From positions 1 to 31,692 of IMG/VR virus record IMGVR_UViG_3300047373_000021: a stretch of 31,692 nucleotides of DNA; one strand, written 5' to 3'. Positions 1-31,692 of this stretch are shown in pieces. Every line of letters begins with the position of its first letter. The first letter of the stretch is position 1. The position numbers and the translations under genes were made by a program. Source of the DNA: a virus. The notes under the pieces are model-generated. The model saw only the letters and a list, made by a program, of their open reading frames with translations. It was not told the DNA's origin and did no database searches.

Positions 1-123
1 CAGATGTTAAACGATTTAATTTTAAAACATCTGAACCATCTGCTGTAGCAAACAACAATCCATTTTGTCTGCTTTCAACACCAACATTTGCAATACCTGC
101 TGAAGTCTTACCAACTAATAAAT
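1..123. repeat. Terminal direct repeat, identical to 31570-31692. It is either the assembly overlap of a circular genome or terminal redundancy. Unique genome length is 31,569 bp.
   Basis: Compared base by base; all 123 positions match. Confidence 0.95.
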
Positions 124-3100
124 TACCACTACTATCTATTCTAGCTCTTTCGTTGTCACCATTGCCCTTGAATACTAAACCTGTGCCACCTGCTGCATGT
201 AATTCAGTTGTGCTTGATGAAGCCTTTAAAATTAATTTATTGGCATCTGAACTACTACCTCTTATATATCCTCCAGTATAAGCTGTTCCTGAAAGGTAGA
301 GGTTTTTGAATCTATATCCGCTTTGACCTAAGTCAACAGCATTATTTACTACACCCCCACCTGTAGTTGCAGGAATTACACCTGCATCATTAAAGTAAAG
401 ACCTTTTGTACTACCACTACCACCTGCAATATAAAAATTGTCTGTTGAAGCAACACCAATACTTCCAACTGTTGTTCCATTTTTTCTAAATAAAGCAATG
501 TCTCCATCTGATGATAGGCGATTTAAAGTTATAGCATTACCTGCTCTAGCTAAATAAAGTAAATCATTTAAGTCTGCTCTAAATTCAAAACCTTGGGTAG
601 CACCTGCATCAACACTTGTTTTGCCAAGCATGACGTTTCCACTACTATCTATCCTAAATCTTTCTGAACTATCTGTTTGGTCATATACTTTTAACGTACC
701 TGCATCTGTAATAAGTCTAAAATGCCCTTCAGTATTTTTTATATCTACACTAGCTTGACCTGCGTTAGTACTTTGAACTGTAAATGTATTATCATTTTTA
801 GCTGTTGTTATAGCACCTGTTACGTCTATGCCTGCTGAATTTAACTTTAAAATTTGTGCAGGCGGATTACCTACTTTAAAATTCATTTCAGGGGATGATG
901 AACCATAACCACCTTCAATAACTCCATACTTAGTAAAAGCTGTATGGAAATCTATAGCGACTCTATTATTAGCACCTGATGTATTATTAGATAGTTTGAG
1001 ACCAGTAGTTACTCCTGATGATGTATTGGTTGCACTTGCTGTTCCTGTTACGTCAATTCCGCTTGAGGTTGTAGATACTTTAGGCGCACCTGCATATCTT
1101 AAAGTTACTGCACCGCCATTAAAAAATGATGCATATTGTGAATCACCTGTAGAATTTTTAAATACTAGATTAGTAGCGTGTAGTTCTAAATTACCAGTTC
1201 CTGCATCTTTTACATAACTATTACTACCATCATGATAGATTTGTAAGTCATTACCTGCACCAAACTGAGCTTTTATATTGTCAGCAAAGTTAAGGTTATG
1301 AGAAAAGTTAAAGCTATCGTTAGCTGTATTCCAAGTTAAGGTAGCATCTTGGGTAGCACTTACAGCATCTTGAATGGTAATACCTGCACCATTAGCTGAA
1401 GCTGATGAATCACCTGTTGAATAGTTAAGGGTAATGTTTTTGTCTTTTACGTTTAGATCATCAGTATTTACGCTTGTTGTAGTACCTTGAACTGTTAGGT
1501 TGCCCTGAATAATTATGTTGTTAGAAAAGGTATGATCGCCTGTAATAGTAGAATCAAGATTTAAAGTAACTGAACCTGAAGTACCGCCACCATTTAAGTT
1601 AGTACCTGCTACTACTGCTGTAATATCACCAGTACCAGTTCCTAGTGCTTGACCATTCCAATATAAAGAACCGCCTACGTTGTAAAGATTATTAGTTGTA
1701 GTTGATGGTGTGTAAGACCCAAACTGTATTGAGCCTTGAGATATGTTAAATGTACCCTGACCAGTAAAACCATCTACAAATGTTGGTGCATTTTCAAATC
1801 TTGCAGTACCACTATCTACAATTAGACCATTATCAAACTCTACAACTTCACCAAAATTAGTTTTATTTAAGAACTTAACCCAGTTACCTGATTTACCTGA
1901 TACAGTTCCATAGGTTTCAACTGTTGACATGGTAACGCCATTCATTTCAACTTCAGTAGTTTTTACTGGGTCATCTGCAATAGTAAATGTTTTAGTAGAT
2001 GCGTTAGATTCAATACCAACACCATTGAAAGCTGTAATACTAGCTTCATAGTTAGAGCCTTTAGGTAAGAAAGCTAAATCAACTGAAGGTGTATCTACTA
2101 TTTTACTAAAGACATTATTGTCTGAGCTATCAACTACATCTACTCTGTATTGTCTTACTGGAAAATCAGTTGGCTCAGTCCAAGTTAAAGTAGGCCTGTT
2201 AATAGATGAAGCATCGGTATCAGTAAATACAATACTATTTGCTTGTGGTGGTTTTAAAGCACCTATAGTTGGTATCTTGGCTAATATTTCAGTTGATTCT
2301 TGAGCTGGTACTTCCCATGTATAGACATCAAAGTATTCAATCAAGCTAACAGATACAAGACCATTTGCCTGTAGTTCTAATGCTTCTACCCTACATATCT
2401 TGCCTGAGAATCCTAAACCTGAATAAGTAAGATCAACTATATCTCCTACGTTTAATTTATACATCTCAGGAGTTCCTAAGAACTGCATAGTGGTCTGATT
2501 TCTACTTCTAGTTAAGATAGCCTTACCCATGTTATAAGCAATGTATGGGTCTGTTACATAAGGGAACTCAGCTTTAATTTCTAATACTTCACCATCATCT
2601 GAATAATAATCAGGCGATGCATCATGTAAAACTGTAGCTGTATCTAGTTCGTATTTCTTATTTGCGTTAAAGAACTCAATAACAACTTTGTTTGCTTTCT
2701 TATCTTTATTGCCATAATCAACTGATATACCAGCATCAGCTATAATATGGTCATCAGTAATACTGAATGTAGAAGAGCCTGTATCTTCTATTTGTAATTC
2801 ATATTTACCATTAACGTAATTAAGAATACCTCGCATATTTGCAAGTAATTCTTTGGCGTTATCCATGACATTTTTATTAGTGTCAATGTAACCATTGCAA
2901 TGAAATCTTTTAACTTTAGCTTTAGCACTACCAGCTTCATTTGTATAACTGCTTGATAAAGTACCATCTATATATAATCTGTTTTCTTGGGTAGCATCAT
3001 AAAATTCATATCGTGTAGTACCTTTAATATCTACACCATCAAAAATTACAGTATCACTAGCATCTCTAATATCTATAACTTCATCTACTTTGTTTTGCCA

Positions 3101-4054
3101 CCAGTCAGCATTGTCATCTATAACAATAAAGTCATCACCTGAATCACCACTCCAAGTTACATCTTGGTAATTGCCATTGTAGTAAGGTTGATCTACTAAA
3201 GTATCGCACTTATTAGCAGCAGCACTAATAGTAGTCATGTTAATTTGTGAAGTTGCTAATCCTTTACCATATTCATCATTTTGTATGTAATCTAAGAAAC
3301 ATAGAGCTGGATTAGAAGACCAAGCAGTAGTGTCAGTTCTTGGGTCGTAAACTTTCTTACCTTTAACCTGTACTGTTATTTGCGGTACGCCTTTATACAT
3401 ACCTTTTTTATCGTAATCAAAAGATGCAGCTATATAACAAATACCATTTAATTTATGATTTGTAGTCCACTCAGTAGGTATAGATGCTCTGAGCATAGGG
3501 TCTGCTGTTTGACTTGATGCGCCATGATGCAAGTTAAATACAAAAGAATATCTAAGTGTTGGGTCAGTTCCTAATGTACCTGCGTTTGAGTATTGATTAT
3601 CACCAACTTGAGATGCAGTATTTAAAGAACCTGAACCTGAAGATATTTTATCTGAGCCTACATATCCACCACCTTTATAGATATTGCCATCTAAAATACT
3701 ATTCCCATCTATTTCAATAGTTCTGCCAAGTATCTCTTCACATTCTCCAACTGATATTGCATAAACAACAAATAAGTCTTTTGATCTGTTTTGTGCTGTA
3801 TCCATATAAACAATTTGAGCACCTACCCTTCTTGTTCCATAGATAACTGGTATCTTGCCACCAGCAGCAGTTTTGTTAGCCATGATGTCTTGACCTTTAG
3901 CTAACATTTGTTTTGCTTGTAAGAAGCCTTTAACACCTACTACTGTTGTATATGCAAAGAAAGCATTTTTAAGGTTAAAGCCACCTGCCCAACCTACTTG
4001 TTGTATTTTATTCCATACAAATTTACCAACAGCCTTAAAAAAATTACCTATCAT
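1..4054 (-). CDS. 5' part (codons 1-1351) of a giant tail-tip / host-specificity / fibre protein: lambda gpJ-like core, FN3-like domain, then fibre. The ORF runs off the window start and continues at 31569.
   Basis: ATG at 4054-4052 overlaps the TAA of the upstream gene (TAATG). I checked every minus-strand codon in this frame down to base 2 and found no stop. The translation contains GKIPVIYGTRRVGAQIVYM, SSNPALCFLDYIQNDEYGKGL and RFHCNGYIDT, which are typical of gpJ / Phage-tail_3 proteins. The frame is continuous with ORF 26759..31627 across the 123-bp overlap. Confidence 0.85.
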   Translation of the reverse strand, partial: MIGNFFKAVGKFVWNKIQQVGWAGGFNLKNAFFAYTTVVGVKGFLQAKQMLAKGQDIMANKTAAGGKIPVIYGTRRVGAQIVYMDTAQNRSKDLFVVYAISVGECEEILGRTIEIDGNSILDGNIYKGGGYVGSDKISSGSGSLNTASQVGDNQYSNAGTLGTDPTLRYSFVFNLHHGASSQTADPMLRASIPTEWTTNHKLNGICYIAASFDYDKKGMYKGVPQITVQVKGKKVYDPRTDTTAWSSNPALCFLDYIQNDEYGKGLATSQINMTTISAAANKCDTLVDQPYYNGNYQDVTWSGDSGDDFIVIDDNADWWQNKVDEVIDIRDASDTVIFDGVDIKGTTRYEFYDATQENRLYIDGTLSSSYTNEAGSAKAKVKRFHCNGYIDTNKNVMDNAKELLANMRGILNYVNGKYELQIEDTGSSTFSITDDHIIADAGISVDYGNKDKKANKVVIEFFNANKKYELDTATVLHDASPDYYSDDGEVLEIKAEFPYVTDPYIAYNMGKAILTRSRNQTTMQFLGTPEMYKLNVGDIVDLTYSGLGFSGKICRVEALELQANGLVSVSLIEYFDVYTWEVPAQESTEILAKIPTIGALKPPQANSIVFTDTDASSINRPTLTWTEPTDFPVRQYRVDVVDSSDNNVFSKIVDTPSVDLAFLPKGSNYEASITAFNGVGIESNASTKTFTIADDPVKTTEVEMNGVTMSTVETYGTVSGKSGNWVKFLNKTNFGEVVEFDNGLIVDSGTARFENAPTFVDGFTGQGTFNISQGSIQFGSYTPSTTTNNLYNVGGSLYWNGQALGTGTGDITAVVAGTNLNGGGTSGSVTLNLDSTITGDHTFSNNIIIQGNLTVQGTTTSVNTDDLNVKDKNITLNYSTGDSSASANGAGITIQDAVSATQDATLTWNTANDSFNFSHNLNFADNIKAQFGAGNDLQIYHDGSNSYVKDAGTGNLELHATNLVFKNSTGDSQYASFFNGGAVTLRYAGAPKVSTTSSGIDVTGTASATNTSSGVTTGLKLSNNTSGANNRVAIDFHTAFTKYGVIEGGYGSSSPEMNFKVGNPPAQILKLNSAGIDVTGAITTAKNDNTFTVQSTNAGQASVDIKNTEGHFRLITDAGTLKVYDQTDSSERFRIDSSGNVMLGKTSVDAGATQGFEFRADLNDLLYLARAGNAITLNRLSSDGDIALFRKNGTTVGSIGVASTDNFYIAGGSGSTKGLYFNDAGVIPATTGGGVVNNAVDLGQSGYRFKNLYLSGTAYTGGYIRGSSSDANKLILKASSSTTELHAAGGTGLVFKGNGDNERARIDSSGNLLVGKTSAGIANVGVESRQNGLLFATADGSDVLKLNRLTS

Positions 4055-4602
4055 TAGCTACCCCACCTTACATCTGATTTCACCTGTGTAGCAAATTCTA
4101 AACCTCTATCGCCTGTATATTCTGCTTGTTGAGATTCATCTGAATAATGCCTACCTTTTGTTAAATTCCAGTTTGCCCAATGTGAAGCTACAGTCATACT
4201 AAGCAAAGAATCTTCTGAGTTTTCTGCTACAGATACATTTCTAATTTGCCCTGTAAAATAATTTATAGCACCCACTAAAGTTTCATTTTCATTAAAGTAA
4301 GCTAAATATATTTCTACTGTTTTATCTGTAAACGCACCGCTTTGAACTAAACTTCTTACTTGATTAGTTACATTTGAAAAACCAAGGTTAATTTCATCTA
4401 CTTGCAACTGACCTGTTTCTGCAACTGAATCTACTGTTAGAAAAGAACCACCAGCTTCATAAGAGTTAGAATCATAAGTTACATCTGAATACCAGTCAGT
4501 AAGTCTTATGGTTGTAGATAAACCTAATTCAACAAGAAATGCTGTTTTGGTTTGTTGTGCTGATACTTGTGTTTGTAAATCTGTTGATAAACTTCTTGGC
4601 AT
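4054..4602 (-). CDS. Tail-tip (hub) minor tail protein, in the position of lambda gpL / RcGTA g13 (DUF2163-like).
   Basis: 182-aa ORF between the distal tail protein and the gpJ-like gene. N-terminus ...AFLVELGLSTTIRLTDWYSDVTYDSNSYEAGG resembles DUF2163-type proteins. TAATG junctions on both sides. Confidence 0.6.
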   Translation of the reverse strand: MPRSLSTDLQTQVSAQQTKTAFLVELGLSTTIRLTDWYSDVTYDSNSYEAGGSFLTVDSVAETGQLQVDEINLGFSNVTNQVRSLVQSGAFTDKTVEIYLAYFNENETLVGAINYFTGQIRNVSVAENSEDSLLSMTVASHWANWNLTKGRHYSDESQQAEYTGDRGLEFATQVKSDVRWGS

Positions 4603-5201
4603 TATGTTATTACCTCTCTAACATCAAATGAAATGCTGTAAAAACCACTAGCATCTGTACTATACATAATATCATTATTCTCAAGATATACAGTAAAAGA
4701 TGGCTTATTTACAGTTACAGCTTCATTATCTGCTAAAGAGCTAACAAGATTTGGAGATATTTTTACAGCAGCTAGTCCACCTGAAGCATTTGCATCTTCT
4801 TGCACCATATAAACTTTTGAATGACTGGCAAATTTAATTAGATCACCAGCTTTTAATGCACCTGTTGTTTGTGAGAAACCATCCATGTTTACAGTATCTA
4901 TCCCTGCTGAATGTGCGGTGTTTACAAGTATATCTGTTTCGCCTTTACTTGCACCTAAATTATCTAGTGGTGCTTGTATTGTAAAGTTACCAATAGCACC
5001 CTTTTGTTTTTGTAAGAAAGCAAATATCTCCTGAGCTTTCTCTTGTTGTATTGGTGGCATTTGAACTGTGAATGAAAAATACTGAGAACCTATTTGTCTT
5101 GCAGACTTTTTGCCTGATAAGGTTTGATTCAGTAATGTAGGTCTATTGTCTTGAAAGTTTATTGACCTAAAGTTTGGGTCTGTAGGAAATGCACCTGACA
5201 T
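4602..5201 (-). CDS. Distal tail protein, in the position of lambda gpM / RcGTA g12.
   Basis: 199-aa ORF immediately after the tape measure gene, with a TAATG overlap. The call rests mainly on synteny. Confidence 0.55.
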   Translation of the reverse strand: MSGAFPTDPNFRSINFQDNRPTLLNQTLSGKKSARQIGSQYFSFTVQMPPIQQEKAQEIFAFLQKQKGAIGNFTIQAPLDNLGASKGETDILVNTAHSAGIDTVNMDGFSQTTGALKAGDLIKFASHSKVYMVQEDANASGGLAAVKISPNLVSSLADNEAVTVNKPSFTVYLENNDIMYSTDASGFYSISFDVREVIT

Positions 5202-6943
5202 TATACTATCCCCATTTTGCCTTGAGTATTCATGGCATTGTTAATTATTTGTGTTATTAATCCTTTTCTTGATGTTAGTAACTGGTCAAATCCAGCAGCA
5301 TCAACTGTTGATATGTTGAAGTTTACTACTGGTGCTGTTTGTGTTGAATTAATACCTTTTAAATCTTGATTGCTTACAATTTGTCCACCTTGATTTGGTA
5401 TAAATAATTCTCTACCTGATTCGCCAACCATATAAGGCTTACCTGCATTTACTGCACCACCTAATGCCTTTTTACCAAATATTCCCTTGAAAAAGGATTC
5501 AAATCCACCAGTCATGGGTGCTATTATTGCTTCTTGTAAAGCTATCCTTAACATTTGCTCTATTGCATAATTTGCAAAATCTTCAAATGCTAATTTTCCA
5601 TTTTTAAGACCTTCAATTAAAGTATCTTCAAATTTTTTCATTGTATTTATTGTTAGATTTTCAATGGCTAAATCAGTTGCACCTAGACTATCTTTAAATT
5701 TTGAAACTCCTTCAGACATTTTTTTAGTTCCTAATGGGTCATCATCATCATCAAGTTTTTTTGTTTCAAGTTTAAAGTTTAAAACTTTAGTAATCATCTC
5801 ATCAAGACTTTTAATAAAACCATTTTCTTCAGGGTCTACACCTTCTAACTGTTGTTGTATTGACATTAGCTCTCTTCGTAAGAGTATAAGGTCATAATTA
5901 GTAAAAAAGTCATCAGGGTCAAATTCAAGGCCAGTTTTCATAATTGCTTGAATCATGTCTGTGTATTCTTTTTTGGTTTCTTTAAAATCCTTTCTTAACT
6001 TTGCTTGTTCATCTGCCATTTCAGGAAAAATCATCTTTCCAATTTTTGTCTGTGAAAAGTCAGCTATTTGTTTTTTTATGCCATTCATAAACTCAACAAA
6101 GCCTATAAATGCAGTTCTCATAAATGTAAGAATACCAACAGCCAAATCCTTACCAAAGTTCTCAAAGGTAGTATCACCACCCTTCATATCAGCTAATATT
6201 ATTTTTAGTTTTTCAGACACATCTTCAAGAACTGGAATAAATGCAGCAGTTATATTTGCTGATATAGCTGTAATTTGTTTTTTAAGTATATTTATAGAAT
6301 TAGCAAACATTTCAGCTTTTGCAATACTTTGTCTACTTATAATAATTCCTAGATTTTCTGCTTCTTGTTCAAATTCTCTTAAACCATCAGCACCATCCTT
6401 TAAGGTGTTTACCAAAGATACACCTTCAGAATCAAAGAATTTAAAAGCTAATCTTACTTGCTCTGCTGAACTTTTTGTGTTTTTTAAACCATCAGCAACA
6501 TCAAATAGCACTTCTCTAACATCCCTTAAATTTCCATTATTATCAGTTAGCTGTATTCCTAATTGCTCAAATGCTCTTTTAGATTCTCCTGTACCTTGAG
6601 CAGCTTCTGCAGCTCTTCTTATAAATCTTTGCAGACCCATATCAAGAGCTTCTACTTTTACACCAGTTTGCTCTGCAGCAAATCGCATAGCTTGTAAAAA
6701 TTCAACCTCTATACCTAGCTTAGAAGCTGTTTTACCCAGCTTATCCATAAAGTCTACATTAACCTTAACTAATGCAGCTAAAGCAGTTGCAGAAGCAGTA
6801 GCAGCTAATCCTACCTTAGCTATACCCATACTAGCTTTACCAGCTACAGAGCCAACACCTTTAAGACCTTTAGTAACCTTATCAAATGCTGCTTTGGTTT
6901 TATCAACTGCGGTTAATTCAAACTTTACTTTTTTATTTGCCAT
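5201..6943 (-). CDS. Tail tape measure protein.
   Basis: 580 aa with an Ala/Gly-rich hydrophobic N-terminal segment and long helical regions. It sits directly after the chaperone frameshift region and before the tail-tip genes. Confidence 0.85.
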   Translation of the reverse strand: MANKKVKFELTAVDKTKAAFDKVTKGLKGVGSVAGKASMGIAKVGLAATASATALAALVKVNVDFMDKLGKTASKLGIEVEFLQAMRFAAEQTGVKVEALDMGLQRFIRRAAEAAQGTGESKRAFEQLGIQLTDNNGNLRDVREVLFDVADGLKNTKSSAEQVRLAFKFFDSEGVSLVNTLKDGADGLREFEQEAENLGIIISRQSIAKAEMFANSINILKKQITAISANITAAFIPVLEDVSEKLKIILADMKGGDTTFENFGKDLAVGILTFMRTAFIGFVEFMNGIKKQIADFSQTKIGKMIFPEMADEQAKLRKDFKETKKEYTDMIQAIMKTGLEFDPDDFFTNYDLILLRRELMSIQQQLEGVDPEENGFIKSLDEMITKVLNFKLETKKLDDDDDPLGTKKMSEGVSKFKDSLGATDLAIENLTINTMKKFEDTLIEGLKNGKLAFEDFANYAIEQMLRIALQEAIIAPMTGGFESFFKGIFGKKALGGAVNAGKPYMVGESGRELFIPNQGGQIVSNQDLKGINSTQTAPVVNFNISTVDAAGFDQLLTSRKGLITQIINNAMNTQGKMGIV

Positions 6944-9041: not shown

Positions 9042-11360
9042 TTAGTCTGAAGATTTACAGAAAGATACTGCATGTCTTACAGCTACATCAACAGTTTGTA
9101 GAGCAACAATTCTTACTCCACCTGAAGTTGATAAAGCATAAGGATCAACAGTAATGTCTAAACCGCCATACATACCAATTAATAGGTCTGCAAAGTTACC
9201 AAAGTAGAAGTCTCCACTTGTTACTTGGTTACTTCTGATTACATTGTAACCATTCATGCTGTTGTCAGGTGACACAACAAATTGAGCAGTACCAGTAGCT
9301 TTTTCAGTAGTTTTTAATGTACCAAAGTCAGCAGGTCTACAGATGTATGCTAAAGAACCATTTAATGCGTTGTCATTAGCAACAGCAGATTCCATAGCTA
9401 CAATCTCAGCCCATGTTGGGTTAGCAGCACCAAAAGTAGTAGTGTTAATACCTGAAGTATTAGCAATACCTGTTGGCTGACCACTTGAACCTGAACCAGC
9501 TAAAGCACCTAAATCAATAGCAGTAGCTATAGATTTTGTTAGGTCATCTCTGATTAAGTTTTCAACATCTAATGAAGACTGTTGTAATAATAGTCTTGTA
9601 GCATCTGTGAAAGCACCAATTACTTTAGGTGACATTGTTACTGAACCTGAAGTAAATTCTGATTCAGAAGCAGCAGCACCTTCTGTTGCAATCCATCCAG
9701 CAGATGAAGCAGCAGTTTTCTTAGGTATTACAACATTACCTTGTAATCCTCTAAGCATAGTAGCACCAGCTTGCATTACTGAAGACTCATTTCTGAGAAC
9801 ATCAATAAAGTCTCCACCTCTGTAATCTTCACTTATTAGTTTTGAATCATCAGATGTGTTTAGGTCTCTTTTTCCCCAATTTCTTAGGACTTCTGAAGGC
9901 AACATGATACCTTGAGCATCTTTGCCATATTGTCTAGCAGCTTCAGCAGAACATTCAAATTCAAATGCTGCATCTTCCTGTGCTTTTCTATCAGATGGGT
10001 TAGCCATAGCTCTAATAGCTTTTACTAGGCTAAATTCTCTTACTTCTTCTTTAGTCATGCCGATTTCTGAAGGAGTTTCTAGTGGAGTGTTGTTAGAAAT
10101 ATTTTCTAGCAATACACCTCTAAATTCTTCAACAGAGATACCATCACTAATTGCTTTGTCAGCTAAATCTCTTTTATTGTGTCTAACTGCTAAATCTATG
10201 ATCTCTTTTGAGTTTCTTTTAAATTCAGCTTTAGCTTCATCAATAGTTTGAGTTCTAACTTCATCAAGATTAATATCTTTATTTTCCATTGTTATTACCT
10301 CTATATTATTAATAGTTTGTTTATCTTTAGAACGACCAACTCCAACAAGTCTTGACTGGTCAGCAGGAACAGACACAGAAGAAACTTCCATAGGTGTCCA
10401 TTGAGCTTTATAGTAATTCTCATCATCTTTGTTCATTCTAGTTAATTTATCGACTCTGTAGCCAACTGAAATGTTCATGCGTATACCATCAGCTACATCT
10501 TCAAATATTTCTTGAGCTAAAGCAGATTTACCAAACCTAACTACAGCAGTTGTCCTTTTTGCTGTCTCATCTAATTTGAATTCTTCAATTACACCAATTT
10601 GCTTTTCCATATCATGGTCAAGTAATAATGGTGCTCTTCCTGAGTTTATAAACTCCATGTTTATATCATCAGCAGAATGTCCTAGTACTTCCATACCAAA
10701 ACTTCTTTCAACTGGTTCTTCACTAGAAACACCAACTCTAACCCTTCTGCTTTCTTCATCAATGTAAGAAGCCTTAGATAAATCAATAGTTCTATATTTC
10801 ATAGGCATATCAATTACTTTTCTTTCTTCTTCATCTGATTCAAGCATAGAGACTTCATCAGTTGTTTCTACTTCATCACCTTCGTGTTCTACATCCTCAT
10901 GTTTCTCAAACTCAACAATAACAGTATTGTCAGTTTCAGTTACATTGAGGATATGTCTATCAGTTTTATCCATAGTTTTCTCCTCTTCATTTGTTAATAA
11001 AGGATGTTTTTCTGATTCTTGCGAATCAAAACTTTTTTGTCTTTCATCTTCTTTCTTCATTTGTTCTACTAATCTTTTTGACCAAGAATAACCTGCATCA
11101 CCACCCCATAATGCCCAAGCTATTCTGCCATTTGAAGGATAACCTTCTTCACCTTGTTTAAATCCTTCAGCTTGTTTGTCTACTTCATGCCTACTGAAGA
11201 AGCTATACATTCTTTTAATAGTTTCATCAGATAGATTTTCACCAGCTACTATTTGTCTTGCTCTTACAGCACCGACCCTAGTACCACCTCTACCATGCTC
11301 TTCACGCCAATCTAAACCCCTCTGAGCTTCTTCTTTCATGCCCTGAGTAGGATTACTCAT
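9042..11360 (-). CDS. Fusion protein: unknown N-terminal domain + HK97-type prohead serine protease (S78) + scaffold-like linker + HK97-fold major capsid protein.
   Basis: Single 772-aa ORF. The protease region carries LLLDHDMEKQIG and MNISVGY. The C-terminal roughly 330 aa look like a Phage_capsid (HK97) domain (...GSVTMSPKVIGAFTDATRLLLQQSS...). An acidic linker follows the N-domain. Confidence 0.9.
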   Translation of the reverse strand: MSNPTQGMKEEAQRGLDWREEHGRGGTRVGAVRARQIVAGENLSDETIKRMYSFFSRHEVDKQAEGFKQGEEGYPSNGRIAWALWGGDAGYSWSKRLVEQMKKEDERQKSFDSQESEKHPLLTNEEEKTMDKTDRHILNVTETDNTVIVEFEKHEDVEHEGDEVETTDEVSMLESDEEERKVIDMPMKYRTIDLSKASYIDEESRRVRVGVSSEEPVERSFGMEVLGHSADDINMEFINSGRAPLLLDHDMEKQIGVIEEFKLDETAKRTTAVVRFGKSALAQEIFEDVADGIRMNISVGYRVDKLTRMNKDDENYYKAQWTPMEVSSVSVPADQSRLVGVGRSKDKQTINNIEVITMENKDINLDEVRTQTIDEAKAEFKRNSKEIIDLAVRHNKRDLADKAISDGISVEEFRGVLLENISNNTPLETPSEIGMTKEEVREFSLVKAIRAMANPSDRKAQEDAAFEFECSAEAARQYGKDAQGIMLPSEVLRNWGKRDLNTSDDSKLISEDYRGGDFIDVLRNESSVMQAGATMLRGLQGNVVIPKKTAASSAGWIATEGAAASESEFTSGSVTMSPKVIGAFTDATRLLLQQSSLDVENLIRDDLTKSIATAIDLGALAGSGSSGQPTGIANTSGINTTTFGAANPTWAEIVAMESAVANDNALNGSLAYICRPADFGTLKTTEKATGTAQFVVSPDNSMNGYNVIRSNQVTSGDFYFGNFADLLIGMYGGLDITVDPYALSTSGGVRIVALQTVDVAVRHAVSFCKSSD

Positions 11361-17315: not shown

Positions 17316-18185
17316 TTAGTCATGGCAAAAACAGCTTCTAGTATCATCATCCAGCAAATCTAATTGGGTGTTATCTTCTGCAATTTGCACAATATCAATA
17401 AATCCCTGACCATTAGATTTAAAAGTTGCAACGTAATTAGAGCCATAATCTTTTTTGGCTTTTGCTATTTTGGTCTCTTGTTTAATCCACCAATCAGCTA
17501 AATCAGGTCTTTCTTTTATAATCTTTACTAAAGTTTGCGTACCTTTTAAGTAACACAAATCACAGTTACCAGCTATAGTTTTACCATTGTAGTTGGGTAG
17601 CTTTAAATCAAAATTGCTTTTTTCCCAAAACTCTCCAACATGCTCTGCTGTAACTTTATTGTCATAAAGTGGCATTAATGATTCCCATTTATTTTTGTTA
17701 GCTTCGTTTTGATTTTTTTGTTTTGATACCCTTCTAGGTTCATCATATCTAAGACCTATGACATTAAACCACTCTTTGTAACCCTTTGACCTCATAAATC
17801 TAGCCATAACACTTACTTTTAATTCTGCTGTACAAATTCTCATAGCTGGATTTGGTAACATTTTCTTTCTATCTATCAATGCTTCAAAAGGTTCTCCATT
17901 CCTACTAGCTGTTTTGTAATTAACTTCTTTGTTTCTATAAATTGGTCTTTCCTCATGTATATCTAATTCCAACCAATTCACTTTTACATCCCACATCTCT
18001 TCACAATCATGTATGAAATCTAAAGTTTCATCCATCTCTTTACCAGTATTTGCAAAAACCACATGCACATCTTCAGGTAATTTACCATCATGTGCTTTAA
18101 GTATTTCATGCAACATATATGCTGAAGTTCTACCGCCACTAAAACTAATTAAAGCAGGTTCATCTATTTTGTATTTATTTTTCAT
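17316..18185 (-). CDS. PAPS reductase-family PP-loop (adenine nucleotide alpha-hydrolase) enzyme with C-terminal Cys motifs.
   Basis: The PP-loop is SFSGGRTS. Also MRICTAELK and GLRYDEPRR, plus the Cys clusters NCDLCYLKG and RSCFCHD. Confidence 0.8.
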   Translation of the reverse strand: MKNKYKIDEPALISFSGGRTSAYMLHEILKAHDGKLPEDVHVVFANTGKEMDETLDFIHDCEEMWDVKVNWLELDIHEERPIYRNKEVNYKTASRNGEPFEALIDRKKMLPNPAMRICTAELKVSVMARFMRSKGYKEWFNVIGLRYDEPRRVSKQKNQNEANKNKWESLMPLYDNKVTAEHVGEFWEKSNFDLKLPNYNGKTIAGNCDLCYLKGTQTLVKIIKERPDLADWWIKQETKIAKAKKDYGSNYVATFKSNGQGFIDIVQIAEDNTQLDLLDDDTRSCFCHD

Positions 18186-26338: not shown

Positions 26339-26388
26339 ATTATATATAAATTTACGCCTGTGGCCATATTGCAGATGCAATATATTGC
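26339..26388 (-). promoter_or_regulatory. Candidate promoter (-10 TATAAT at 26339-26344, weak -35 TGGCCA at 26361-26366). It is flanked by three copies of the heptamer GCAATAT/ATATTGC, including a 12-bp perfect palindrome.
   Basis: ATATTGC occurs at 26366-26372 and 26382-26388, and GCAATAT at 26377-26383. The palindrome GCAATATATTGC spans 26377-26388. Confidence 0.35.
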
Positions 26389-26392
26389 CATT

Positions 26393-26749
26393 TTATTCGC
26401 CTATTGTTTTTGTTTCAGTAGTAGGTGTAATTTGCTCATCTATGTTTTCTTTTAAAGATTTTTTTAGATTAGCTACTTCTTCTTCACCCATAATACTTTG
26501 CACCCATCCACTAACTATAGTGTTAGTTAAGTCTGCAAAAGGTATAAAGTCAGAACCAATATCATCTAGTGATAATGATTGAGTGCCATAAGAACTTGCT
26601 GTATATGGTACTTCTTGACCATCTACTTCGTGCTTTTCACTACTTGTTGCGTTTAGTCTCCAATGAACATTGTAAACTGTATCTGTATGTTCCTCGTATT
26701 CAGGATATACATCTACTGTTTTACAGTCCCATGTGTATGTATTTGCCAT
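26393..26749 (-). CDS. Hypothetical protein directly downstream of the fibre gene (possible fibre accessory or assembly protein).
   Basis: 118-aa ORF with a GGAGAA SD, 9 nt after the fibre stop codon. I recognise no family. Confidence 0.55.
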   Translation of the reverse strand: MANTYTWDCKTVDVYPEYEEHTDTVYNVHWRLNATSSEKHEVDGQEVPYTASSYGTQSLSLDDIGSDFIPFADLTNTIVSGWVQSIMGEEEVANLKKSLKENIDEQITPTTETKTIGE

Positions 26750-26758
26750 TTTGTTCTC

Positions 26759-29700
26759 CTATAAAGTTGTTATTATAAATGCTAGGAGTTCATTATATCT
26801 TACTCCTAGTCTTGTTTGCTCGTTACCATCATCATCAGTCCAAGTGCTAGATATAAACATACCATAATCACCTGCATCTAATCCTTCAGCTTCAAAAGCA
26901 TCTTGTAAGTCTTGGGCTATAACACCAAAGTGGTATCTAGCATCATCGCCTTTTTTCTCTACTGCATCTTGCCATCTGAACCTTCTTATTAAACCTTTAC
27001 ATGCTGTAGCTACTCTTTGCTCTGCTTCTGTTAAGGTTTGTATGTCTTGTTTCTCATTTCTATCAGAAGTGTTGATAGTTCCATTGGTTGCGTAAATATC
27101 ATCAAATCTTGAGCCTGAGTTACCTAAGTCCATAGCATTATCTGCTGTGCTACCATCACCCCTACAGGGTAATGCTGCTTCAGTTACTGTATAATCTATA
27201 AATCTAAGACCAAAACCTGCACTACTTGTAGTACCACTTGCAATATACATATCACTACCAGTAGTGCTATTAATACCTATATTACCTTTAGTAGTTCCGC
27301 CAACTTGAACTGCTATGATTTGCCCTGTATCAGATTCACTATCATTTGCTGTTATAACTGGATTATAGGTTTCAGTTTTATTAAAGTTAAATACACCATC
27401 ACCTGTTGCTGTTATAGACCCTGATGTAATATTTCCACTTGGATAAATCGTTGCAGCTTCACTTTCACCTGCTGTTGTACCGCCAACAATAAAGCGACCT
27501 GCTGAGTCTATTCTAGCTGTTTCGCTGTTATTAACATAGAAAGTAATATTTGATGTGCCATTATCATTATTTCTATCAACACCTAATCTTAGTTCAGAGC
27601 TATTTGTATAAAGTTCTGCTGGTGCTGAATCACCAAATCTAATATTACCTGTAGTGTGTAAAGACTCAGTTGGATTAGTTGTGCCTATTCCAACCTTCGC
27701 ACCTTTTAAAGTCATGGTGTCTGTAAAAGCACCATCTGTGAATAGCATAGAATCATTAGAAGCATCATGTTGTATTTTAGCTTTTACACCATCATCTTCT
27801 TCAAAGAATATTGAAGCATCTGAGCCTACTGCATTTGCATTTATAAAAATACTTGCATTACCTGCATTGGTTACTTTCAAAGCACCGCCTGAAACTTCAA
27901 GTTTTGCTGCTGGGATAGCAGTGCCAATTCCAACATTGTTTGAGCTATCAATGTTGATGTTAGCTGCATTGCTTCCTGAATTTCTACCTATACTTAAAAT
28001 ACCACCTTCAGCACTCATATAACCAATAGTGTCATTATCAGCTATTTTTAGTATTGACCTGTTAGTTCTTGATAAGACTTCTAAGGTTGCTATATTACCG
28101 CCTTCGTTATTAATAACTACATTACCTGTTTGACCGCTAGATAAAGTACCAACTGTTAAAGTAGCAGTTGGATTTGTGTTTTTTATACCTAATCTACCTG
28201 AAGCATCGAAACGACCAACTTCTGTATTTTGTGTAAAGAATTTTAGATTTGAACTTAAAGATACCGCTACAATATCTAAATCATCCCTATCACTTGCGTT
28301 AAGTTCAATCCTACCTCTTGTAGTTCCTGCATCAGTTAGGTAGATATTATCTTCTGCTGATATAGCACCTGTAGATGTAACACCACCAACATTAGCTGTT
28401 CCTGCAAGATAAAGGTCTTTGAATCTTGTATCAGACTTACCTAAGTCTATAGCATTATCTCTACCTGCTATAGTTGATGTATTGATAGGATAAATTTTAT
28501 CTTCAGAAGCATTGAAGTAAATTCCAGTATCACCTGTGCCTAGATAAATATTACTAGCAACAGTACCAATACTTCCAACTGATGAGCCATTTTTGCGGAA
28601 TGAAACAATGTCTCCATCGCTATCAAGCCTGTTAAAATATGCAGTAGCATTGTTAGATTTGGCTAATTGTATAGTTCCATCTGATTCAATTACAGTCCCT
28701 GTATTGCCACCTGCACCATTATTCCAAAGGGAGCTATCAGTAGTCCCAACCAACAGATTGCCTGATGAGTCTATCCTTGCTCTTTCACTTCCACCAGTTG
28801 CAAAAGCAATAGTGTTGTCAGTATTAGGATTAAACATACCTGTATCAACATCACCATTAAATGAATAAGCTGGATTAGATGCAACTCTTCCTGAGTTTGT
28901 TGCTTGTATAAATGCTTCTTTAGAGTTACCAACTCCTACTTGCACATTACCATTTACATGAAGCGGTGAAGCTGGCGAAGTCGTATTAATTCCAACCGAA
29001 CCACCAGCTTTAATAGTAACTCTATCTGTTCCACTTTCCCTAATAAAGAAATCAGCATTGTAAGGTTTTAAACTCCATGATGAGGCATACGTACCTGTTC
29101 TAGCTACTGTTAATTCTGCATTACCATCAGGTGCTGAAACGTGTAAAGCTGTGCTTGGCGAACTTGTGCCGATACCCAATTTTCCATTAGTAAATCTAGC
29201 TGTTTCTGAATTATCACTTCCATAGAATCTTTGTGAGCCTGAGCCATCTACTAAAAATCTTGTTTGGCTACTTGAGTCACAAACTTCAAGACCATAAGAA
29301 GTTGAGGAATTAGCATCTGAACCTACGCTTAATGCTACTGCTGCATTGACAGATTTATTAATTCCAACGCTACCACCTGAAGAAATAGTTAGTCTTCTTG
29401 TATTACCTGTTTTTATACCCAATGTATGACTTGTTGTTGTACCAAACTCCATGTCTGTAGTTGAATCTACATACGCAAAGTTTGCCTTAACTGCACCACC
29501 ACTTCTTTGCCATTCAGATAATGCCACATCACCATTAGCTGTATAAGTACCTGTAAATGTTGCTACTGGAGCATTGGCAGTTGAGTTTAAAACATCTATG
29601 CCACCTGCTACATTAGCTATTCCTGTAAGATAAAGGTTTCTAAATCTATTTGCAGATGAACTAAAACCTAAGTCTACTGAGTTATCAGTCTGTGGGTATA

Positions 29701-31692
29701 AGTGATTTGTATTTAAGTTAAGTAGAGCTGCATTACTTGCACCTAATTGTAGGTTAGCATTTGTACCAATAATGGTCATTTTATTAGAACCACCTACACC
29801 AATGCTTCCCACCAAAGAGCTGTCTTTGTATAACGCTAAGATACTGCCATCACTTGATAAACGATTGAGGTAAAGTGCTGTGTTTCCATCTTTTACAAAA
29901 TGCCCACCCCCAACAAGATTACTACCTTGAGTCCCAAAATCTCCGCTAGTTTTACCAACTAGAAACAGACCACTACTATCTATTCTAGCTCTTTCAGAAC
30001 CACCTGTATAAAAACGCATGACTCTTGAAGATGAAGTAGAATTTATAGATACATTAGAGTCACTACCTAAATATAAAGTTCTTCCACTATCTAAACCAAT
30101 ATCTCCAGCAGCAATATCTAGCTTATGACTTGGCGAAGTTATACCAATTCCAACCTTGCCATCACCATTAAATGTAGCCAAAGTAGCATCACTGGAATTA
30201 GCAATTCTTAATGCGTAATGTGAAGATGTGCTACCTGCTGAAACTCTTAAACCATAGTTATCTGCTCTTACCCATGAACCAAGAGTAGTTGCAGATGATG
30301 AAACTACTTTTAATGTAGCATCAACTGAAGTTGCACCTATTCCAACACGACCTGCTGAGTCAATTGTAAATCGTGTAGTATTAGCAGTATCATCATAAAT
30401 ATAAAAATTACCTGTTGAGTTAGATATAAAGGTAAATTCTCTACCGCCACTAGAATTTGTATTAGCTAGTGTAAAAGTAGTTCCTAATGCTGAATTAGAT
30501 GTTGTGGTTATTCTTGAACCATCATAAGTAAAGTTAGCTTCAGCGTTTAATGTATTTGCTGTACCGCTACCTGTAATAATTCTATTATCAGCGTTGTTGT
30601 TAATGGTTGTCCCTTCTGTATCATCATCCGCCCATATAACTTGGCTACCAGTTGAAGGATATTTAAGAACTTGCCCTGCTGAACCACTTGTTGAAGGTAG
30701 GGTGTATTCGTTGTCAACTGTAAAAGAACCTTGAATGTTTATGTTGTTAGCATAAGCTGTTCCTGAAAGGTAGAGGTCTTTAAATTTATTGTTAGTATTA
30801 CCTAAATCTAACAAACCATTACTTACGCCATTTGTTGTAAGATTCCAAGGAGTTATTTGATTTGCATCTGCAACAAATCTTAATCCTGTATCACCAGTAC
30901 CAATAGTTAATCTAGCACTTTGAGTACCAATACTTCCAACTGTTGTACTATCTTTTCTTAAATCTATAATAGTTCCATCAGATGTAAGTCTGTTAAAGTT
31001 AATACATTCACCGCCATCTCTAGTTATATTAGCAAAACCATTAGCACTAAATCTATGACCAGCAACTCCTGTATTACTAGTTGTTCTCCCAACTAACAAA
31101 TTACCGCTACTATCTATCCTAGCTCTTTCTGATGTACCCGCTCTGAGTAGCAAGTTATTGCCTTTAGCACCTATTGCTACAGCAGCAGCACCAAAAGTAC
31201 CTGTTGTGGTGCTATCTTTAAGAGCAATAAACACATTAGTATCAGTAGACTCAACACCTAGAGGAACATTATCTGTACCACCGCTTACATGAAGGTCAAC
31301 TGTTGAGTCGGGTGAGGTTGTGTTTACAGCAACTTTACTAGTATAAGCTGTTCCTGAAAGGTGAAGGTCTTTGAATCTTGAGCTGCTACTGCCTAAATCT
31401 TTAGAACCATCAGCAACACCACCTGTAGATGTTGAAGGTAAGATTGCATTAGAAATTAAATGTATTCCTGAACCACTACCAAGAGGTGTGCCTAAAGCTA
31501 TACCTGTAGATGTTGTAGATATTCTGCCAACTGTTGAGCTATCTTTTCTAAATTGTGTAATTTCTCCATCAGATGTTAAACGATTTAATTTTAAAACATC
31601 TGAACCATCTGCTGTAGCAAACAACAATCCATTTTGTCTGCTTTCAACACCAACATTTGCAATACCTGCTGAAGTCTTACCAACTAATAAAT
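26759..31692 (-). CDS. 3' part of the same giant tail-fibre gene (2,954 aa in total): repeated fibre modules ending in an S74 chaperone domain. Positions 31570-31692 duplicate 1-123.
   Basis: The frame is open to the window end. The TTG 'start' at 31627 in the ORF track is internal. 4054 + 4811 nt = 8865 nt = 2955 codons. Fibre motifs recur (ERARIDSSGNLLVG, NRLSSDGDI..FRK.G..VGSIG, DLG.S..RFK.LYLSG). Confidence 0.85.
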   Translation of the reverse strand, partial: LLVGKTSAGIANVGVESRQNGLLFATADGSDVLKLNRLTSDGEITQFRKDSSTVGRISTTSTGIALGTPLGSGSGIHLISNAILPSTSTGGVADGSKDLGSSSSRFKDLHLSGTAYTSKVAVNTTSPDSTVDLHVSGGTDNVPLGVESTDTNVFIALKDSTTTGTFGAAAVAIGAKGNNLLLRAGTSERARIDSSGNLLVGRTTSNTGVAGHRFSANGFANITRDGGECINFNRLTSDGTIIDLRKDSTTVGSIGTQSARLTIGTGDTGLRFVADANQITPWNLTTNGVSNGLLDLGNTNNKFKDLYLSGTAYANNINIQGSFTVDNEYTLPSTSGSAGQVLKYPSTGSQVIWADDDTEGTTINNNADNRIITGSGTANTLNAEANFTYDGSRITTTSNSALGTTFTLANTNSSGGREFTFISNSTGNFYIYDDTANTTRFTIDSAGRVGIGATSVDATLKVVSSSATTLGSWVRADNYGLRVSAGSTSSHYALRIANSSDATLATFNGDGKVGIGITSPSHKLDIAAGDIGLDSGRTLYLGSDSNVSINSTSSSRVMRFYTGGSERARIDSSGLFLVGKTSGDFGTQGSNLVGGGHFVKDGNTALYLNRLSSDGSILALYKDSSLVGSIGVGGSNKMTIIGTNANLQLGASNAALLNLNTNHLYPQTDNSVDLGFSSSANRFRNLYLTGIANVAGGIDVLNSTANAPVATFTGTYTANGDVALSEWQRSGGAVKANFAYVDSTTDMEFGTTTSHTLGIKTGNTRRLTISSGGSVGINKSVNAAVALSVGSDANSSTSYGLEVCDSSSQTRFLVDGSGSQRFYGSDNSETARFTNGKLGIGTSSPSTALHVSAPDGNAELTVARTGTYASSWSLKPYNADFFIRESGTDRVTIKAGGSVGINTTSPASPLHVNGNVQVGVGNSKEAFIQATNSGRVASNPAYSFNGDVDTGMFNPNTDNTIAFATGGSERARIDSSGNLLVGTTDSSLWNNGAGGNTGTVIESDGTIQLAKSNNATAYFNRLDSDGDIVSFRKNGSSVGSIGTVASNIYLGTGDTGIYFNASEDKIYPINTSTIAGRDNAIDLGKSDTRFKDLYLAGTANVGGVTSTGAISAEDNIYLTDAGTTRGRIELNASDRDDLDIVAVSLSSNLKFFTQNTEVGRFDASGRLGIKNTNPTATLTVGTLSSGQTGNVVINNEGGNIATLEVLSRTNRSILKIADNDTIGYMSAEGGILSIGRNSGSNAANINIDSSNNVGIGTAIPAAKLEVSGGALKVTNAGNASIFINANAVGSDASIFFEEDDGVKAKIQHDASNDSMLFTDGAFTDTMTLKGAKVGIGTTNPTESLHTTGNIRFGDSAPAELYTNSSELRLGVDRNNDNGTSNITFYVNNSETARIDSAGRFIVGGTTAGESEAATIYPSGNITSGSITATGDGVFNFNKTETYNPVITANDSESDTGQIIAVQVGGTTKGNIGINSTTGSDMYIASGTTSSAGFGLRFIDYTVTEAALPCRGDGSTADNAMDLGNSGSRFDDIYATNGTINTSDRNEKQDIQTLTEAEQRVATACKGLIRRFRWQDAVEKKGDDARYHFGVIAQDLQDAFEAEGLDAGDYGMFISSTWTDDDGNEQTRLGVRYNELLAFIITTL
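26762..27067 (-). other. Peptidase S74-type intramolecular chaperone (auto-cleaving) domain at the C-terminus of the fibre.
   Basis: The last 102 aa begin SDRNEKQDIQTL... and contain YHFGVIAQDLQDAF. This matches the SD.r.K ... G.iAQ pattern of the endosialidase / T5 pb1 C-terminal chaperone domain. Confidence 0.75.
31570..31692. repeat. Second copy of the 123-bp terminal direct repeat (equals 1-123).
   Basis: Exact identity with the window start. Confidence 0.95.

Follow-up and report, generated by a model that had tools for sequence, protein, structure and literature searches.

A circular reading of a small marine siphovirus assembly points to a single 2,954-residue central tail fibre protein

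Why should the first 4 kb of a phage record appear to be empty of genes? The question is raised by IMG/VR virus record IMGVR_UViG_3300047373_000021, the whole of which (31,692 nt, hereafter the window) was analysed, and in which an open reading frame (ORF) lister reports nothing of 80 residues or more in positions 1-4053. On the minus strand, to which all features described below belong unless stated otherwise, the frame that begins with the ATG at 4054-4052 is free of stop codons over its whole length of 1,351 codons, which ends at base 2 and leaves a single base unread, as a first-pass annotation of this DNA had claimed. The remaining five frames of 1-4054 contain 59, 108, 111, 131 and 198 stops, and the probability of a 1,351-codon open run arising by chance, calculated from the base composition of the same segment, is about 10^-47. 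The ATG begins on the final A of the TAA (4056-4054) that ends the upstream gene, forming the TAATG overlap described previously, and a Shine-Dalgarno-like sequence, AAGGTGGGG, lies at 4069-4061, six bases 5′ of the start codon. The track is empty because the lister reports no ORF that continues past the end of its source, which is consistent with the earlier explanation that this ORF was missed for want of a stop codon inside the window. We propose, with a probability of roughly 85%, that when the genome is read as a circle this frame is the head of one gene for a 2,954-residue central tail fibre protein, in which a baseplate hub, a fibronectin type III (FN3) domain, a long fibre and a C-terminal Peptidase_S74 (S74) chaperone form a single chain.

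Understanding this gene requires an accurate view of the ends of the window. Positions 1-123 recur exactly as positions 31570-31692, identity ends precisely at these borders, and none of the 15-mers of this direct terminal overlap is found elsewhere in the window. With one copy of the overlap dropped, the circle measures 31,569 bp, and the giant gene is read from 4054 down to 1 and then from 31569 down to 26759. Its 5′ part (124-4054) holds codons 1-1310 and the first base of codon 1311, the left copy of the overlap (1-123) encodes residues 1311-1351 (NLLVGKTSAGIANVGVESRQNGLLFATADGSDVLKLNRLTS) together with the first base of codon 1352, and its 3′ part (26759-31569) extends from the rest of codon 1352 to codon 2954 and the stop at 26761-26759. 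The right copy (31570-31692) is the redundant end of the circular assembly, the overlap being counted once. Since 123 bp is 41 codons, the reading frame is preserved across the join. Joining the rotated circle through a single copy gives one product of exactly 2,954 residues with one terminal stop, and an end-to-end join that keeps both copies gives 2,995 residues, 41 of them doubled; the length of 2,954 residues proposed earlier is correct, but it holds only with one overlap copy removed, and the overlap itself had gone unmentioned. On the circle the frame is indeed shared with ORF 26759..31627, so the TTG listed as the start of that ORF is internal, and the gene takes up 8,865 of 31,569 nt (28.1%), in agreement with the previous estimate of about 28%.

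The window holds the complete genome of a small marine siphovirus, assembled as a circle of 31,569 bp with 123 redundant bp left at its end. In addition to the terminal overlap it has a full gene complement, with a GpA terminase, a lambda-type portal, capsid and tail genes, a holin, a lysozyme and a primase-helicase, and it is of the same size as its relatives (contigs of 31.9-34.6 kb, from ten homologues). The linear break falls within the phage's largest gene. The overlap length of 123 may correspond to k-1 for a de Bruijn assembler with k=124, as left on a circular path.

Several lines of evidence argue that the two halves of the gene adjoin. In L009, a JGI contig of 31,890 bp, an intact gene of 2,864 residues lies mid-contig between a gene for a gpL-like tail protein (Phage_phiJL001_Gp84_N, hereafter Gp84_N) and a DUF7936 gene, and the gene order is that of the window: GpA terminase, lambda-type portal, 768-residue capsid, tape measure, 199-residue distal tail protein and 182-residue Gp84_N protein. 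The Logan contig L010 carries a gene of 2,908 residues whose start lies 127 bases in from the contig end, and the genes downstream of it are the same ones. At the DNA level both contigs are 85-91% identical to window positions 1038-4180 and 80-90% identical to positions 26383-27537. When neighbouring genes are included, window 1038-5327 matches the 5′ end of the L009 giant gene and the genes upstream of it at 85% identity, and window 24518-27537 matches its 3′ end and the genes downstream at 80.5%. The junction itself is covered by L013, a 7,239-bp metagenome contig located by means of a wobble-tolerant pattern drawn from inside the overlap, which matches nucleotides 3904-4103 of the gene without gaps over 200 nt at 88% identity. 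The match takes in window 151-124 (28 nt), then the overlap once, then window 31569-31521 (49 nt); both borders of the overlap are crossed with a single copy between them, and at the sequence level L013 gives independent support for the junction.

The internal structure of the fibre is also informative. The second of six fibre modules described below spans the join, and with one copy of the overlap its four motifs are separated by 45, 18 and 44 residues, compared with 43-51, 18 and 44-46 residues in modules 1, 3, 4 and 5; if both copies were kept, the first spacing would be 86. Because the spacing is canonical only with one copy, it supports a single-copy join. An exact 40-mer of the overlap has no match in the viral contig collection, which hence holds no identical contig, and a junction-spanning query of 350 residues recovered only distant loci among viral contigs (36-38% identity over the join, or contigs ending in the gene), which supports collinearity weakly. 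The earlier claim that the halves are contiguous is upheld by the intact genes of L009 and L010, the L013 junction and the spacing of module 2.

The N-terminal portion of the protein identifies it as a tail component. Residues ~53-600 have the sequence and the predicted fold of a baseplate hub of the gpJ/pb3 type, the core of which lies at 2321-3898 (residues 53-578). Pfam Phage-tail_3 (PF13550) matches residues 426-556 (window 2387-2779) with 27.1 bits against a cut-off of 23, the N-terminal 700 residues match phrog_31, "central tail fiber J", with an E-value of 3.5e-44, and in a search of PDB sequences residues 53-578 align to residues 251-716 of the solved T5 hub pb3 (E 1.5e-14). An AlphaFold model of residues 1-700, built with 24 homologues, has a predicted local distance difference test score (pLDDT) of 76.4 and a predicted template modelling score (pTM) of 0.69. 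When this model was searched with Foldseek it retrieved T5 pb3 (7ZHJ_b, E 2e-27, TM 0.52) and lambda gpJ (8IYK_F, E 4e-23), as well as the hubs of DT57C, T1, JBD30, Chi and RcGTA. The first-pass annotation had reached the gpJ-type identity from three motifs, GKIPVIYGTRRVGAQIVYM, SSNPALCFLDYIQNDEYGKGL...AAANKCD and RFHCNGYIDTNKN, all of which occur in the translation; Pfam, PHROG, the pb3 sequence match and the fold search bear it out, and each of the three Pfam families that it had named, Phage-tail_3, fn3 and Peptidase_S74, scores above its curated cut-off.

Gene order fits a hub as well. The giant gene follows genes for a 580-residue tape-measure protein (5201-6943), a pb9-like distal tail protein (4602-5201) and the 182-residue Gp84_N protein (4054-4602; Pfam E 4e-10, and a match to the tail protein family phrog_2048). 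The first ~250 residues of pb3 are without a counterpart in the giant protein, and the missing part is probably supplied by the adjacent Gp84_N protein, which would represent a separate N-terminal piece of the hub. Ahead of the hub core, residues 1-56 (window 3890-4054) constitute a conserved, partly hydrophobic extension (FFAYTTVVGVKGFL), to which nothing in the pb3 alignment corresponds and which the model renders as two helices of low confidence. Following the core, an FN3 domain had been placed at about 1985-2255, and Pfam fn3 (PF00041) matches within that range, at 1991-2236 (residues 607-688); the match (E 7e-6) is a marginal pass at 26.6 bits against a cut-off of 25. The model has beta-strands at residues 609-692, forming a beta-sandwich, and FN3 proteins are among its fold matches.

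The opposite end of the protein, encoded on the far side of the circular junction, is an S74 intramolecular chaperone (26762-27067, residues 2853-2954). Peptidase_S74 (PF13884) matches residues 2853-2914 with an E-value of 1.2e-10 and 42 bits against a cut-off of 22, and the C-terminus matches the sequences of the PDB chaperones 6EU4, 7Y5S, 3GUD, 4UW8 and 3GW6 with E-values from 9e-22 to 2e-8. For the autoproteolysis of T5 pb1, residues D1239, R1250, S1264 and K1269 have been described (PMC4690869). The corresponding residues here, D2828, R2839, S2853 and K2858, occupy positions S-25, S-14, S and S+5, a spacing identical to that of pb1, and the scissile bond falls at T2852|S2853 (S2853 codon at 27067-27065). 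Judged by these residues, the Asp/Arg/Ser/Lys site is intact, and by analogy with pb1 autoproteolysis should strip the final 102 residues from the mature protein. Remnant S74 domains behind the internal fibre modules were also considered and were dropped, as Pfam at E ≤0.1 finds the terminal one only.

Between hub and chaperone, residues ~700-2852 (about 2,150 residues) are rich in Gly, Ser, Thr and Asn and include six paralogous modules of about 140 residues. A proximal shaft (695-1957, residues 700-1120) comes first, marked by the motif LTVQGTTTSVNTDDLNVKDKNITLNY...AGITIQD and by matches to phrog_19195 and phrog_13518. The shaft is conserved, with 81-92% identity, up to about residue 950-1026, to six (P0001-P0006) of nine metagenomic proteins that share both ends of the giant protein; residues 669-1351 gave no match in a PDB sequence search, and an NlpE hit at residues 1085-1145 fell below the Pfam threshold and was ignored. 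The modules were defined by motif scans, MAFFT alignment and searches with a hidden Markov model, and are characterized by four motifs, ERxRIDSSG, NRLxSDG, VGSIG and DLGxxxxRFKxLY, with GxVGIGTxxPxxxLxV-type motifs in the spacers between them. BLASTP of the protein against itself gave no off-diagonal matches at the settings used. Module 1 lies at 257-685 (residues 1124-1266); module 2 is split by the junction into a first part at 1-172 (residues 1295-1351) and a second part at 31322-31569 (residues 1352-1434); and modules 3, 4 and 5 are at 30731-31150 (residues 1492-1631), 29591-30016 (residues 1870-2011) and 28370-28807 (residues 2273-2418), respectively. The terminal module 6 (27068-27544, residues 2694-2852) carries D2828 and R2839 of the cleavage site and is about 80-90% identical in DNA to L009 and L010. 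For module 3, an AlphaFold model reached a pLDDT of 77, and most of its structural neighbours in BFVD come from marine phages, as S74-domain or "intramolecular chaperone" proteins.

The central part of the gene also bears marks of exchange. Amid a strongly diverged centre, window 648-819 forms a 172-bp island of 96.5% identity to L009 15777-15948, which looks like a recombination patch when the sequences are compared, and L010 has similar high-identity patches at window 27921-28189 and 30356-30717. Outside its 200-nt match L013 is unrelated to the window; its own open frame (L013 2-4405, minus strand) exceeds 1,468 residues and runs off the contig end. The shared piece of module suggests, from its sequence, that modules are exchanged between fibre genes of different phages.

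Certain observations count against a single protein of exactly this length and function. The junction support from L013 extends over only 200 nt at 88% identity. For the divergent centre with its repeats (approximately residues 1000-2700), both exact sequence and length rest on one assembly, and with just 25-45% identity to relatives this region has no residue-by-residue confirmation. No significant PDB fold match was found for the module 3 monomer model (best E 0.25, TM ≤0.28), a result that is expected if the native module is an intertwined trimer, and the monomer model is not trusted as a fold. In addition, the trimeric state, fibre length, cleavage and receptor-binding role are predictions from homology. 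These points leave some room, although not much, for a gene that has the right topology and is nevertheless inexact, its centre being a strain chimera or having gained or lost modules in assembly, so that the true fusion differs somewhat in length or sequence. Such an error could be accommodated by a centre that is hypervariable among relatives, with patchy identity as in the 172-bp island at 96.5%, by the presence of six paralogous modules in a family whose members sharing both ends span 1,693-3,076 residues, and by an overlap that begins just within a semi-conserved stretch coding for ERARIDSSGNLL. On the other hand, the modules have diverged in DNA: internal repeats are 66-93% identical over spans of no more than 268 bp, and the longest exact repeat within the gene is 27 nt, far under a k-mer of about 124. 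Furthermore, the overlap is unique, the frame is unbroken over 8.9 kb, and among homologues that share both ends the five longest, which include the four closest relatives, measure 2,785-3,076 residues, a range that takes in 2,954.

It is much harder to sustain the idea that the contig is not closed and that the 123 bp are two copies of a repeat, with extra sequence between the ends or with separate hub and fibre genes. The overlap does sit in a repeat-containing gene, and closure is taken from the assembly. Nevertheless, a single gene in relatives matches both ends of the window, L013 crosses the join with one copy, module 2 is canonical over the join, the gene set is complete, and the genome is of the size seen in relatives. 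Least probable of all is a 123-bp physical terminal repeat of a linear virion genome, in which case the gene would be intact only after circularisation or in concatemers. Some phages do have short direct terminal repeats. The terminase here, however, is a lambda gpA-type enzyme (PF05876 and PF20454, E ~1e-95). Enzymes of this type cut at cos sites near the terminase genes, so the physical ends would be expected at such a site, close to the terminase genes at about 15.3-16 kb of the window, and not in a fibre gene; related contigs break elsewhere, and a length of 123 would be accounted for by k-1 at k=124. We therefore retain the reading of one hub-to-chaperone gene on a circular genome.

It is useful to compare this protein with the tail tips of well-studied phages. 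Lambda gpJ (1,132 residues; PDB 8IYK, 8K35) likewise combines, in one chain, the hub that closes the tail tube and a central fibre with a receptor-binding end, and in lambda, as in the window, the gene comes after those for the tape measure, distal tail protein and gpL or its counterpart. In contrast to lambda, the gpL-like gene of the window is followed by the hub gene with neither gpK nor gpI in between, and the giant protein is 2.6 times longer than gpJ, with six ~140-residue modules and an S74 end; Pfam detects no S74 domain in the best-known gpJ-type proteins that were compared. T5 pb3 (949 residues; PDB 7ZHJ, 9IOZ) is the best match of the window hub in both sequence and fold, it also has FN3 domains after the hub, and the distal tail protein of the window resembles T5 pb9. 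In T5, however, hub (pb3), central fibre (pb4) and receptor binder (pb5) are the products of three genes, whereas everything distal is in one chain here, and the first ~250 residues of pb3 correspond to the separate 182-residue protein. The C-terminal domain is homologous to those of the T5 L-shaped fibre pb1 (4UW8), the K1F endosialidase (3GW6), the GA-1 neck appendage (3GUD) and an Acinetobacter phage tailspike (6EU4), but there the chaperone sits at the end of a side fibre, spike or appendage, and in the window at the end of a tail-hub protein.

Among cultured phages, the hub is closest to those of pelagiphages HTVC112P, 026P, 111P and 202P (27-31% identity), and the capsid is 56% identical to that of CRP-811 and 43-45% identical to those of six other CRP phages. 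HTVC112P, CRP-811 and CRP-822 are small marine siphoviruses of about 30-32 kb with the same tail gene order as the window, and all of them divide hub and fibre between genes: in HTVC112P hub gp47 (1,102 residues) and fibre gp48 (756 residues) are separate, CRP-811 has a 971-residue tail protein and separate fibre genes, and in CRP-822 hub gp29 (971 residues) and fibre gp28 (535 residues) are separate and adjacent. CRP-822 gp28 aligns to residues 2558-2932, chaperone included, with 38% identity (E 2e-49), and its single module matches every module of the window. The fibres of CRP-822 measure only about 19 nm in transmission electron microscopy (PMC12629253). A search with modules found counterparts in 21 records of cultured marine phages, in each case in a tail-fibre or structural gene; these are pelagiphage podoviruses, roseophages and Synechococcus phage S-CBP42, and in most of them the three modules of the query align to one place, as expected for a single-copy module.

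The picture is different in uncultured phages. Fifty-eight proteins of 1,642-3,521 residues match the giant protein, 57 of them in the N-terminal hub region, and most carry S74 according to precomputed Pfam domains. The description of hub and fibre as fused is thus apt relative to cultured relatives, in which they are two adjacent genes, but the fusion is not exceptional and is the usual state in the uncultured lineage (57/58). The nine metagenomic proteins that share both ends (P0001-P0009; 1,693-3,076 residues, 1-8 modules) are 71-93% identical to the window protein in the N-terminal ~600 residues and 81-98% identical in the last ~115-230. They have the same layout of hub, FN3, fibre and S74 and the same flanking genes, and differ in the sequence, module number and length of the central 1,000-1,700 residues. 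The lineage of the window has fused hub and fibre and multiplied the fibre module, as compared with its split cultured relatives. In the hub family as a whole (8,324 representatives at E ≤1e-3), the best 150 members are mostly 800-1,400 residues long, and five of those exceed 2,500. A literature search joining Peptidase_S74 with central tail fiber returned no paper, and a broader one returned only structures of lambda, T5, T1 and mycobacteriophage tips.

The CRP-822-type family was described in 2025, and the predicted hosts of its low-GC subgroups are SAR86 or SAR11; it was delimited by TerS, TerL, portal, capsid and head-tail joining genes, a genome of about 28-40 kb, and clustering by gene content or core genes (PMC12629253). 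The window has a GC content of about 35%, in line with the low-GC subgroups, and is similar in gene order and size to CRP-811 and CRP-822. Its head and tail genes resemble those of CRP-822-type roseophages at the sequence level, and we consider that the lineage probably belongs to, or lies near, this group, which is an abundant one among marine siphoviruses.

Homology with the solved tail tips of lambda and T5, and with the chaperones of T5 pb1 and K1F, leads us to propose how the protein may work. Three chains, together with the 182-residue gpL-like piece and the distal tail protein, would form a cone that closes the tail tube on the tape-measure protein, and the remainder of each chain would enter a single trimeric central fibre, on the order of 100 nm and approximately as long as the tail. 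The C-terminal chaperone would nucleate folding of the trimer and then cleave itself off at T2852|S2853, exposing module 6 as the predicted distal receptor-binding tip. Binding of the receptor could then be relayed up the fibre to open the hub. Scaling from CRP-822, where a 535-residue fibre gene corresponds to a fibre of about 19 nm, gives a length of at least 75 nm, and at the typical fibre density of ~0.05 nm per residue the length would be about 110 nm; both are estimates only, and either would be comparable to a tail set by a 580-residue tape measure.

How the fibre acquired its modules is a matter for speculation. Each internal module retains two elements of the S74 cleavage site, Asp/Asn and Arg, as well as the DLG....RFKxLY motif, which in other marine phages stands directly ahead of the chaperone; the Ser, the Lys and the chaperone itself are missing from all of them. 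Because the Asp/Arg motif is retained and the module usually sits before S74, it is possible, though doubtful, that the five internal modules are former C-terminal tips and that the fibre grew as new "tip plus chaperone" cassettes were captured one after another, each downstream of the tip already in place. In favour of this idea are the single copy of the module in the matched fibres of cultured marine podoviruses and siphoviruses and the predominance of S74-domain proteins among its BFVD neighbours. If this were true, a string of old receptor-binding units would line a fibre of about 100 nm, which might confer several binding specificities or a tunable length, given the range of 1,693 to 3,076 residues in relatives sharing both ends.

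Other features of the genome deserve mention. Nine bases past the stop of the giant gene is a DUF7936 gene (26393-26749, 118 residues), found in the same place in L009 and L010, and its product may assist the fibre, either as an accessory protein or in assembly. The capsid gene (9042-11360) encodes a 772-residue fusion in which about 470 N-terminal residues, matching phrog_4523 ("major head and protease protein") and phrog_2859, precede an HK97-type domain (residues 517-769); the fused form also occurs in CRP-811, in Synechococcus phages S-CBS1 and S-CBS3, and in L009. The replication region contains a gene for a 289-residue protein with a PAPS-reductase domain (17316-18185), and a PAPS-reductase gene is also listed for the CRP-822-type family (PMC12629253). 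All sizeable ORFs with a function or family match lie on the minus strand. In 2-kb intervals GC skew is negative throughout, and tRNA and Rfam scans of the window found nothing.

This finding is chiefly an annotation rescue, in which the first-pass observation was correct and its reading held up wherever it was tested. The giant protein belongs with the known gpJ-type central tail fibres as a large version composed of known parts, its fibre portion being of the S74-chaperone kind and lengthened through multiplication of modules; the fused giant form is common in metagenomes, and no long-standing question is settled by it. In practical terms, gene calling on the linear record loses the largest gene of the phage, the main determinant of host range, and substitutes 4 kb of "non-coding" DNA and a truncated ORF of 1,622 residues with a false TTG start. 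Rotation of the circle cures the problem, and any circular contig with a terminal overlap is open to the same trap.

For the biology of these phages, devoting 28% of a 31.6-kb genome to a single central fibre places this phage towards the top of the hub family. With a conserved base, a conserved tip and a variable, modular centre, these proteins offer a natural system in which to follow the evolution of fibre length and module number.

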